A program made the position numbers and the translations under genes. From NCBI GenBank assembly GCA_963731265.1, contig CAVSUE010000001.1, forward strand, positions 64,001-128,000: DNA of 64,000 nt, in the 5' to 3' direction. Origin of the DNA: an uncultured Verrucomicrobiae bacterium (lineage in GTDB: Bacteria; Chlamydiota; Chlamydiia; Chlamydiales; Rhabdochlamydiaceae). The notes below the pieces were generated by a model, which saw nothing but the letters and a program-made list of their open reading frames with translations, ran no database searches and had not been told where the DNA came from. This document shows, in pieces, positions 30,173 to 31,704 of the stretch (its first letter is position 1; every line of letters begins with the position of its first letter).

Positions 30173-31597
30173 TTATCCATTTGCCAGGCGTTTTGCCAAT
30201 TGGCTGAAGATAAGAGCATGAATCGGATAAAGACTATACCAATAGAATCTACCCCAGACTCCATTGGGGCGGAAGGATGCCGTTTGCTTGAGGGTCCCAC
30301 CTTTACCTTGGGGAATGATCTCAAATTCTAGCCACGCTTCACCTGGCAATTTCATTTCAGCATAGAGAAGAAGGCGATGATTTTTTTCATCTGCTAATAA
30401 AACGCGCCAGAAATCGAGAGCGTCTCCGACCTTAAGCCGCGTCGGATGAGTCCTGCCTCGGCGCAGTCCAATTCCTCCCACCAGTTTATCCAGAAAGCCC
30501 CGGAATTTCCAAGCCCAATTCATCGCCGGCCAACCCTGATCTCCGCCCAAAGCCCAAATCCGTTTTTGCAATTCTTCCACGGGACAAGAAAAAGGAATGG
30601 TGCGTCTATCGCTCAAGATGCCGAATTTTGGGACGTGCACATAAATGGAAAGATCTGGATTTAAAGTGGAACCGCTTAAGGTATCTTTCCAGCTTGAACG
30701 CATCCAATCTTCTTCGATACGACTGAAAGCGAGTTGTAGGGCCTCTTCATAAGTGAGGAGTTTTATAGGAAAAAGCTTTTGAATTTGATTCTCTTTGCAA
30801 ATGGCATTATTGATCAGACTTTCGACAAGAAAATGGGCAAGTGAATAGCTCGTGCTGGTCACAAAATACAACCAATAGGAAGAGAGGCGTGGCGTAAGGA
30901 AGGGAACCGTAAAAATTTTTCGTCTCAAGCCTCGCATTTTGGCGAAATTCAATAGAAGGTCTTTGTAACTCATCACATCGGGGCCTCCAATCTCAAACGA
31001 TTCACCGAAGCAAGCAGGGTTGCCCAAAACAACTGTTAAATAGGCTAGAACATCGCGGACGGCGATCGGTTGGGTTAACTGCTTAAGCCATTTTGGGGCA
31101 ACCATAACAGGCAGTTTTTCAACCAGATCTCGAATAATTTCAAAGGAAGCACTTCCCGACCCGATGATGATTCCAGCCATCAAAATAGTCACAGGAACTT
31201 TTCCTTCTCGGAGGATTTCGCCTACCCTTTTTCTGGAGCTTAAATGATGCGAAAGTTGAGCTTCGTTTGACAGACCGCTCAAGTAGACGATTTGTTTCGC
31301 TTGTGTGTTTTCCAGCCGTTCTGCAAAATTTTTTGCCGAAGCAGCTTCCAATTCAGAAAATTTTTGCGAATAACTCATCGAATGGACTAGATAGTAAGCG
31401 ACATCGATGTTAAAGGGAATTTTTAACAAGGAAGAAGGATTAAGTAGGTCAGCTTCAATGACATGAATTTGAGAGGTGGAAATTTCAATGCGAGAACGGC
31501 TTCTTACCAAGGCATATATTTCATGCCCATCGTCTACCAAGCGGGGAAGAAGGCGAGTTCCAATGTACCCGTTCGCGCCAGTAAGTAAAATTTTCAT
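30173..31597 (-). CDS. YbjT-like NAD(P)-binding SDR with DUF2867
   Basis: LTGANGYIG, YYLVHSM, GSGSASFE, GDALDFWRV, AEMKLPGEAWLEF. Confidence 0.9.
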   Translation of the reverse strand: MKILLTGANGYIGTRLLPRLVDDGHEIYALVRSRSRIEISTSQIHVIEADLLNPSSLLKIPFNIDVAYYLVHSMSYSQKFSELEAASAKNFAERLENTQAKQIVYLSGLSNEAQLSHHLSSRKRVGEILREGKVPVTILMAGIIIGSGSASFEIIRDLVEKLPVMVAPKWLKQLTQPIAVRDVLAYLTVVLGNPACFGESFEIGGPDVMSYKDLLLNFAKMRGLRRKIFTVPFLTPRLSSYWLYFVTSTSYSLAHFLVESLINNAICKENQIQKLFPIKLLTYEEALQLAFSRIEEDWMRSSWKDTLSGSTLNPDLSIYVHVPKFGILSDRRTIPFSCPVEELQKRIWALGGDQGWPAMNWAWKFRGFLDKLVGGIGLRRGRTHPTRLKVGDALDFWRVLLADEKNHRLLLYAEMKLPGEAWLEFEIIPQGKGGTLKQTASFRPNGVWGRFYWYSLYPIHALIFSQLAKRLANG

Positions 31598-31704
31598 CCG
31601 TCCTCTGGCGGAAACCCGGCCCTTAAGGGCCGGGTATTTTCAAAAACAATGTTGGGCCGAGTACGAAGCTCGGCCCCAACTTAATCCCAGAAGGCCTGGG
31701 TTCA
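31590..31704. repeat. Three-hairpin dispersed repeat, copy 1 (includes start codon and RBS of the ybjT-like gene)
   Basis: Near-identical to 48461-48580. Confidence 0.9.

Follow-up and report, generated by a model that had tools for sequence, protein, structure and literature searches.

Small hairpin repeats at gene starts of a Rhabdochlamydiaceae genome are probably transposase-less relatives of IS200/IS605 elements

Introduction

Two unrelated genes of an uncultured bacterium of the Rhabdochlamydiaceae, a ybjT-like gene and pyrF, begin in almost the same stretch of hairpin-rich DNA, which raises the question of how they came to have it in common. Both genes lie in the window analysed here, a stretch of 64,000 nucleotides (nt) that corresponds to positions 64001-128000 of contig C1 (CAVSUE010000001.1) of the source genome (assembly GCA_963731265.1, here G000; 2.34 Mb in contigs C1 and C2, with 45.8% and 45.2% G+C); coordinates are those of the window unless a contig is named. 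A previous sequence-only reading of the window had noticed the near-identical stretches at 31590-31704 and 48461-48580 and had offered two explanations, a portable translation-initiation cassette or a single-stranded DNA element of the IS200/IS605 type with hairpins like those of REP (repetitive extragenic palindromic) sequences that targets gene starts. Our analysis points to the second. The two stretches belong to a dispersed repeat family which, at a probability of roughly 0.8, represents a transposase-less, non-autonomous palindrome-associated transposable element (PATE) of the IS200/IS605 family, with the window + strand as its active top strand.

Results

The two window copies are 93.3% identical over 120 columns of a BLAST alignment, and matches at E<1e-8 in the 2.34-Mb genome define a family of 49 copies of a noncoding repeat with a consensus of ~113 nt. 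The 38 full-length copies of the main subfamily exhibit a mean pairwise identity of 93.9%, and one pair is 100% identical. Some copies are without the last palindrome or without the left part, two hold a nested insertion of another small repeat, one (C1:927786) lies inside an insertion sequence (IS) at its tnpA start, and a head-to-tail pair on C2 is the sole doublet. Among relatives, 11 of 18 same-genus genomes carry the repeat, as against 0 of 12 that represent other families in the order; it is confined to the genus. The presence or absence of individual copies differs between close species. Movement was recent: two copies are identical, and one of them occupies a site that is empty in the relatives G003 and G002.

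Read in the element's orientation (top strand, window + strand; the sense of the genes is the minus strand in the window), conservation across the family extends from TTCAT to GGGTTCAC. Both window copies end, on the minus strand, in ...CCAGAGGACGG-ATGAAAAT, and the additional AAT that they have in common within ATGAAAAT lies outside the repeat, since conservation stops at TTCAT. Empty sites were found for 6 insertions. At copy C1:361506, the closest relative, G003, reads ...CTATGAAACGC..., and G000 has the element between CTA-TGAA... and ...ATGAAACGC; at copy C1:360008, G003 reads ...AAAAAAATGAAAAG... and G000 reads ...aaaaag-TGAACCC...GGACGG-ATGAAAAG. The site of copy C1:486496 is empty in both G003 and G002, and that of copy C1:473069 is empty in G002, where CAA-TGA stands in place of the CAG-TGA of G000. 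For the copy at C1:927786, a paralogous empty site is provided by the second IS605-like copy of the genome and 4 related IS loci, all of which read ...T followed by ATGAAAAAG at the tnpA start. In relatives that have no element there, the ybjT-like gene opens with ATGAAAAT at 4 of 4 loci. The comparison of pyrF 5′ regions was informative in part: pyrF starts with ATGAAAAA in G005 and G017, and the G002 gene already carries the element. Because these empty sites show insertion immediately 5′ of ATGAA, the ATG is the gene's own, a target and not cargo. The earlier proposal that the repeat brings a ribosome-binding site together with the ATG and first codons, as a portable cassette, thus holds for the Shine-Dalgarno (SD) motif, which is borne by the element, and fails for the ATG and first codons, which are native and make up the target motif.

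The exact ends could be fixed from copies that differ in their last base. In the two C-ended copies with an empty site (n=2), the relative has A where G000 has G and the flanks are equal in length, so that the G (C on the top strand) must be borne by the element. On the other side, the junction of the head-to-tail pair on C2 reads ...TTCAC followed directly by CCGTCC, and the same TTCAC-CCGTCC junction is found at a GTGAA start in a 47-nt remnant in G005; the fifth left base is therefore flank. Among the right 5-mers of 42 copies, TTCAC occurs 31 times and TTCAT 8 times, and in other species the left 5-mer is variable at positions 1-3 and the right 5-mer nearly constant. By these boundaries, the element is a segment of 113 nt, CCGTCC...GGGTTCAC, inserted 3′ of TTCAT without duplication. 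The G005 remnant (locus L019, G005:C1:1630447-1633498, positions 1501-1552 of the reverse complement) retains the left end only and constitutes the entire spacer between two co-directional genes; decayed copies evidently persist as operon spacers. Partial left-end matches in G001 and G005, considered as candidate IS ends, were rejected, and proved to be a variant copy and this 47-nt remnant, both at gene starts.

The architecture of the ends is that of the IS200/IS605 family. Terminal inverted repeats are absent (the first 25 nt and the reverse complement of the last 25 nt match at 9/25 positions), a 22-nt palindrome starts 16 nt inside the left boundary, one like it, of 20 nt, stops 5 nt short of the right boundary, and the two have a common core, GGCC..TTAA..GGCC. 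We compared the repeat with the ends of a related IS, defined from three identical copies in another genome. The left 48 nt of the repeat align with IS605-like left ends at scores reached by 0, 1 and 2 of 2000 shuffles for three IS variants, and the right 40 nt align with the right ends at scores reached by 0, 1 and 6 of 2000, whereas the crossed comparisons that served as controls were not significant (465 and 1263 of 2000 shuffles). Since left and right ends align with the respective IS ends, the repeat would be an IS200/IS605 derivative with the window + strand as its top strand. In IS608, insertion occurs 3′ of the motif and leaves no duplication, the left cleavage site is external to the IS, at 19 nt from its hairpin, and the right one is internal, at 10 nt (as described in PMC3201880). 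PATEs are characterized in PMC3119063 by missing inverted terminal repeats, near-terminal palindromes, a 4-5-nt targeting sequence, no target duplication and a longer 5′ spacer. In its layout the repeat fits that definition and mirrors the IS608 spacing, with 16 nt on the left and 5 nt on the right. In the terms used for Geobacillus (bioRxiv 10.1101/2023.03.14.532601), TTCAT would be the transposon-adjacent motif (TAM) and TTCAC the transposon-encoded motif (TEM). Just 5′ of the left palindrome, the repeat has a GGAA-type sequence and the IS a GAAA/AAAA-type sequence, tracking TTCAT versus TTTAT; as a lead, this difference would fit a guide/cleavage-site pairing of the IS608 type, in a register that is uncertain.

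The IS200/IS605 family prefers the lagging-strand template (as reported in PMC5027513), and the top strand of the repeat lies on that template in 32 of 49 copies (p 0.044). The cumulative GC skew is lowest near C2:197,000 and highest near C1:1,061,000 and runs on unbroken across the contig ends; by this measure C1 and C2 behave as if they were one circular replicon. Gene strand bias across the two contigs is nearly nil.

The distribution of the copies is skewed toward gene starts. In a crude set of open reading frames (ORFs), from which gene starts were taken, 270 ATGAA sites stand at starts, 6727 inside ORFs and 1004 outside. A frame of at least 100 codons opens at the adjoining codon of 28 of the 47 copies with an intact left end, against 18.7% of the 8001 ATGAA sites (p 6e-10). 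One of the 28, the tandem-pair copy, starts at CAC and reads through its neighbour; with it excluded, 27 of 47 copies stand exactly where an ORF of 100 or more amino acids (aa) begins, where 21% would be expected if ATGAA sites at gene starts and outside ORFs were hit and kept equally (p 7e-8). Pfam domains were found in 21 of these 27 ORFs, and several matches begin at profile position 1-4 within residues 3-9, which argues that the ATG is the true start. The genes concerned are unrelated and include pyrF, ftsW-like, nadD-like, an sdhA-like flavoprotein and a transposase. Of 42 right ends, 16 have a TGA that terminates an upstream frame of at least 66 codons, compared with 6.1% of GTGAA sites (p 1.4e-9); the ORF table yields 17 such closures, two of them by copies that have lost 1 nt. 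In other species, for which 39 of 40 fetched copies were analysed, the ATG frame stays open to the end of the 200-nt flank in 17 of 39 copies against a 24% baseline (p 0.006) and the upstream frame is open into the TGA in 12 of 39 (p 2e-6), p-values that overstate independence because the genomes are kin. Collectively, the alternative that would have spoken against targeting, a random scatter of copies without the start motif, is not what the genome holds: other copies carry ATGAA as well, and their placement is nonrandom.

Read in the gene sense, a filled junction has the form upstream ...NNG-TGA-A-[hairpins]-GGAGGA-CGG-ATG-AA... downstream. The SD sequence 3 nt before the ATG is borne by the element, with GGAGGA as its consensus and the form AGAGGA in the two copies of the window, and the 16S tail, CACCTCCTTT, contains CCTCC. 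SD-like 4-mers precede 32% of crude starts and 12% of random sites, and nothing SD-like is present in the corresponding spacer of the related IS. On the opposite strand TTCAT reads ATGAA, so that many targets consist of a start codon with a Lys or Asn codon after it. At junctions where stop and start overlap as ATGA in relatives, the GTGA of the element rebuilds the stop, and the last sense codon only changes from NNA to NNG, as documented for CAA to CAG and AAA to AAG. The downstream gene keeps its own ATG, and its native leader is pushed ~113 nt upstream.

By analogy with IS608, we infer the following route. A Y1 (HUH) transposase acting in trans would bind the two subterminal palindromes and cleave after the flanking TTCAT at the left end and, at the right end, after a motif of the element itself, TTCAC or more rarely TTCAT; a single strand would then be moved and re-inserted 3′ of another TTCAT with no target duplication. 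The GGAGGA-CGG of the left end would supply an SD sequence to the downstream gene, and the (G/A)TGA-A of the right end would rebuild the in-frame stop of an upstream gene that had formerly overlapped by ATGA. With the SD motif and the restored stop, the element appears able to replace an operon stop/start junction and leave both genes intact. We further infer that selection favoured the SD and TGA features for allowing insertions at start codons to survive. A contribution of the element to promoter activity was considered and dropped, as a promoter scan of 48300-48800 gave 0 sites.

The repeat is strongly structured on both strands. The DNA + strand folds at -30.8 kcal/mol (z -5.9) and the RNA in the gene sense at -58.6 kcal/mol (z -4.8), and in either case 0 of 200 shuffles were as good. 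The sequence-only reading had counted three hairpins, including a perfect palindrome; these are present, and the family consensus has a fourth, the 20-nt palindrome near the right end, which that reading had missed. Its further suggestion that base changes in the stems keep G.T wobble pairs on the plus strand only finds weak echo across the family: a hand tally gave ~27 G.T versus 17 A.C single-transition stem variants family-wide (two-sided p 0.17), and because this difference is not significant, wobble was not used for strand assignment. Hairpin 3 differs in sequence between subfamilies, with changes on both sides in 6 of 8 pairs and none broken (the wobble loop-closing pair omitted), and it precedes a T-run in the gene sense. 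It may serve in transcript attenuation or stabilization, or it may be the remnant of a guide-RNA scaffold.

A search for a linked Y1 transposase, as the sequence-only reading had suggested, gave two Y1_Tnp (PF01797) matches in the genome, in each of which tnpA is divergent from a tnpB. They belong to IS605-like units with left and right ends of their own at C1:926563-928385 and ~C1:315815-317531 (loci L001-L004), and the first has the repeat at its own tnpA start codon. From their sequences, both transposases look defective. The damage is complementary, one TnpA being without the second His of HUH and the other without the stretch that holds the catalytic Tyr. IS608 TnpA assembles its active sites in trans, as described in PMC3597680; it is pure speculation that a mixed dimer of the two damaged proteins might rebuild one active site. 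The genome also contains eight near-identical TnpB-type (PF07282) ORFs of 519-523 aa, at C1:43336, 55465, 160983, 450363, 684109, 1075514, 1170748 and 1474424, and a 157-aa fragment of the same type at C1:863150, which together look like a separate tnpB-only IS family; none of these ORFs adjoins a copy of the repeat.

Copy A of the window occupies 31598..31705 (+ strand), a 108-nt element from CCGTCC... to ...GGGTTCAC with a 5-nt deletion in the right palindrome. Its putative left cleavage site, the flanking TTCAT or TAM, lies at 31593..31597 (+), and the reverse complement of this motif is the native ATGAA start of the ybjT-like gene. The element-borne AGAGGA stands at 31601..31606 (-), followed by CGG and the ATG. 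The perfect 22-nt palindrome at 31614..31635 (+), 16 nt from the left boundary, aligns with the IS605-like left-end hairpin and is taken as the equivalent of IPL, the left subterminal palindrome; hairpin 3, the internal one whose structure is kept by compensatory changes across subfamilies, follows at 31651..31680 (+). The remnant of the right palindrome (IPR), together with the element-borne TTCAC (the TEM and putative right cleavage site; GTGAA on the minus strand), covers 31686..31705 (+). The gene itself (30173..31597, -) encodes a predicted NAD(P)-binding protein of 474 aa (MKILLTG...) with Epimerase/NAD_binding_10 matches from residue 3-7 and a DUF2867 domain.

Copy B occupies 48469..48581 (+) with 113 nt from CCGTCC... 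to ...GGGTTCAT. Its TTCAT target motif, the reverse complement of the ATGAA at which pyrF starts, lies at 48464..48468 (+), the AGAGGA at 48472..48477 (-), the left subterminal palindrome, with one G.T pair, at 48485..48506 (+), and hairpin 3 at 48522..48551 (+), which in the gene sense is followed by ATTGTTTTTG and thus resembles a terminator. The IPR and the end motif TTCAT cover 48557..48581 (+), the 20-nt palindrome itself being 48557-48576. Copies A and B differ by C/T in the 22-nt palindrome, by G/A in the loop of the hairpin after it, by the 5-nt deletion and one G/C change in the fourth hairpin (31686-31700 versus 48557-48576) and by C/T at position 31705 versus 48581. Downstream of copy B lies pyrF (47701..48468, -; 255 aa, MKITYEQ..., with an orotidine 5′-monophosphate decarboxylase domain), and upstream lies a 200-aa pyrE-like gene of the same operon (48672..49274, -); in relatives, the pyrE-pyrF spacing is 1-19 nt. 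Copy B and the pyrE stop are separated by 90 nt (48582-48671) that form a further small repeat; it contains a 15-bp inverted repeat, AAATATTTATAATGA ... TCATTATAAATATTT, and has 18 BLAST matches in the genome at E<1e-6.

Further small repeats are dispersed in this genome, among them C1:1234819-1234981 with 64 BLAST matches, C1:1280540-1280683 with 48, C1:372590-372794 with 32 and C1:1248080-1248244 with 24. The repeat nested in two of the element copies is 144 nt long and sits directly before the right palindrome. Some of these other families are abundant in G001, G002 and G005.

Discussion

Our results indicate that the apparent leader of pyrF and the ybjT-like gene is a mobile element that has been inserted exactly at their start codons. 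The homology of its ends to IS605 ends, the empty sites and the excess of copies at ORF starts agree with the earlier suggestion of an IS200/IS605-like element aimed at gene starts. The same repeat could be seen as a host-selected RNA leader or regulatory cassette, that is, an attenuator, a stabilizer or a translation-initiation module, of which the ATG is a part and for which mobility is secondary or due to recombination. The strong fold in the gene sense (z -4.8), the compensatory changes in hairpin 3 and the T-run after it, the conservation of the SD motif across diverged subfamilies and the 27 of 47 copies in 5′ leaders would all be expected of such a module. It sits poorly, however, with an ATGAA that is native to genes as unrelated as those served here, with the 20 of 47 copies that open no long ORF, with presence and absence varying between close species, with a copy inside an IS and with ends homologous to IS ends. 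A scan of 48400-48700 against Rfam 15 also gave no family at E<=0.1; the best E-values, 0.18 and 0.54, were at chance level and far below gathering scores. Taken together, we find this explanation improbable.

A different kind of mobility, that of a classical MITE (a miniature transposable element with inverted repeats) moved by a DDE transposase with duplication of a 4-bp TGAA/TTCA target, deserves attention because TTCA flanks both sides of nearly every copy and because the T-ended copies and their empty sites fit such a duplication equally well. Duplication of a start context nevertheless predicts T at the right end, where 31 of 42 copies have C, and the base before CCGTCC is C, not T, in the tandem pair and the G005 remnant. 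With only 9/25 bases matching between the ends, which rules out terminal inverted repeats, and with both ends resembling those of IS605-type elements, we regard a MITE of this class as very improbable. Least probable of all is a repeat of the REP type or its hairpin-forming doublet version (REPIN), maintained by a domesticated REP-associated tyrosine transposase (RAYT). The GC-rich palindromes, the presence of the Y1 family in the genome, the copy number and the intergenic habit are REP-like; yet both Y1 genes reside in IS605-like units with tnpB, have their own ends and do not lie between inverted copies of the repeat, the left and right ends of the element are distinct, which makes it asymmetric, and its sole doublet is head-to-tail.

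Several observations weigh against the PATE interpretation itself. The enrichment at gene starts is measured against an expectation of 21% that is rough because the gene calls are a crude ORF set, and the replication-strand bias is modest, with a post hoc split of 16:4 away from gene starts and 14:13 at start codons. The T-ended copies fit a 4-bp TGAA duplication as well as insertion without duplication, and the orthologous sites of C1:378586, 376980, 370727 and 1237624 gave no clean empty site: at the first, an odd ATGAACCC-ATGAATCC doublet stands in G002 and the N-terminus is longer in more distant relatives, and at the second, the element and the adjoining second repeat are both missing from G002. 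No source of working transposase is evident either. In the tnpA beside C1:927786, HVQ replaces the conserved HVH, 1 nt is deleted near codon 5 and the start holds the element; the other tnpA is out of frame where relatives have LWSPSYF, and the resident IS is preceded at its left end by TTTAT rather than TTCAT. An autonomous element with the ends of the repeat was absent from 80 loci of TnpA relatives, and the repeat, apart from the nested copy, was absent beside the 8 Y1 loci of the genus. Y1_Tnp was found in just 6 of 19 genus genomes, which do not include the repeat-rich G012 and G013, assemblies that are 74% and 64% complete. Finally, the compensatory conservation of hairpin 3 goes unexplained by a transposition model.

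At the first of these orthologous sites, the G002 sequence (locus L043, G002:C1, the counterpart of G000:C1:378586-378702) reads ...CTATGAACCC-ATGAATCC..., with a doubled 8-mer similar to the bases with which the element's gene-sense end begins. Excision might have left it as a scar, or it could stem from an independent duplication or from chance.

By its features, the element is a variant of the IS200/IS605 PATEs and neither a MITE with terminal inverted repeats nor a REP/RAYT system nor a known RNA family. With the PATEs of Haloquadratum walsbyi and Geobacillus stearothermophilus, as PMC3119063 and bioRxiv 10.1101/2023.03.14.532601 describe them, it has in common a noncoding size, the lack of terminal inverted repeats, similar near-terminal palindromes, a targeting motif of 4-5 nt on the 5′ side, the lack of target duplication, ends related to those of tnpA/tnpB elements and many copies beside decayed transposases. 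Unlike in the PATEs as those accounts present them, the targeting motif here complements a start codon and two further bases, an outward-facing SD sequence takes the place of the 5′ spacer, and the 3′ end doubles as a stop codon. That most surviving copies sit exactly on stop/start junctions follows from a target that is the complement of the start codon and from ends that supply the SD sequence and the stop. The 'peel and paste' elements IS608 and ISDra2 (PMC3201880, PMC5027513) resemble it, according to these accounts, in insertion 3′ of a motif that stays outside, in a right motif inside the element, in subterminal hairpins and, though weakly here, in a preference for the lagging-strand template (PMC5027513). 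They differ in that our element has no tnpA or tnpB, uses TTCAT/TTCAC where IS608 uses TTAC/TCAA and has its right motif 5 nt from the hairpin instead of the 10 nt given for IS608 in PMC3201880; the likeness rests on sequence layout.

Other small repeats approach gene starts by other means. Neisseria REP2 and the Borrelia IR sequences, compared here by their description in PMC3184786, are likewise dispersed stem-loop repeats immediately upstream of ORFs, with a ribosome-binding site beside the ATG; they also carry a promoter and the ATG itself, and that account gives their mode of spread as not known, whereas here the ATG is native to the genes, 0 promoter-like sites were seen and the transposon family is identifiable. 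REP sequences and the bacterial interspersed mosaic elements (BIMEs) built from them, which PMC3333891 and PMC2817692 associate with RAYT, are similar in their GC-rich palindromes related to IS200/IS605 hairpins and in a Y1-type enzyme, but our element has no RAYT-type gene context, no inverted doublets and asymmetric ends. Chunjie (as described in PMC3184786) is also a small non-autonomous element tolerated inside operons, yet with 21-bp terminal inverted repeats and 9-bp direct repeats it belongs to another transposition class. Among the titles and opening lines of abstracts in the library searched, we found no IS200/IS605-derived element that targets start codons and brings a ribosome-binding site and a stop.

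We tentatively put forward a further reading, somewhat doubtful on present evidence, in which the target motif, the left spacer and the right end have co-evolved into an 'operon-safe' module that rewires expression and is thus more than a tolerated parasite. With the start codon as its target and an SD sequence plus a stop as its cargo, such a module would colonize the stop/start junctions of essential operons in the compact genome of an intracellular bacterium, and translationally coupled ATGA overlaps would be converted into independent, SD-driven starts. The intergenic hairpin with its T-run could then act as an attenuator or mRNA stabilizer, or represent an omega-RNA remnant for a resident TnpB.

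For the genus, the finding explains the identical 'leader' and the apparent first codons of dozens of genes, and annotators should not read the common ATGAA as a repeat-encoded peptide. It also illustrates how overlapping stop/start junctions get pulled apart. The pair TTCAT/TTCAC, together with its one-base difference from the TTTAT of the resident IS, may constitute a natural case of target reprogramming in the IS200/IS605 family. More generally, the repeat would show how a transposon that moves as a single strand and has a short, fixed target can survive among densely packed genes, by picking a motif found at gene starts and carrying the ribosome-binding site and stop that its insertion would otherwise destroy, and it offers a testable case of mobile DNA that may give translation signals to many unrelated, partly essential genes.

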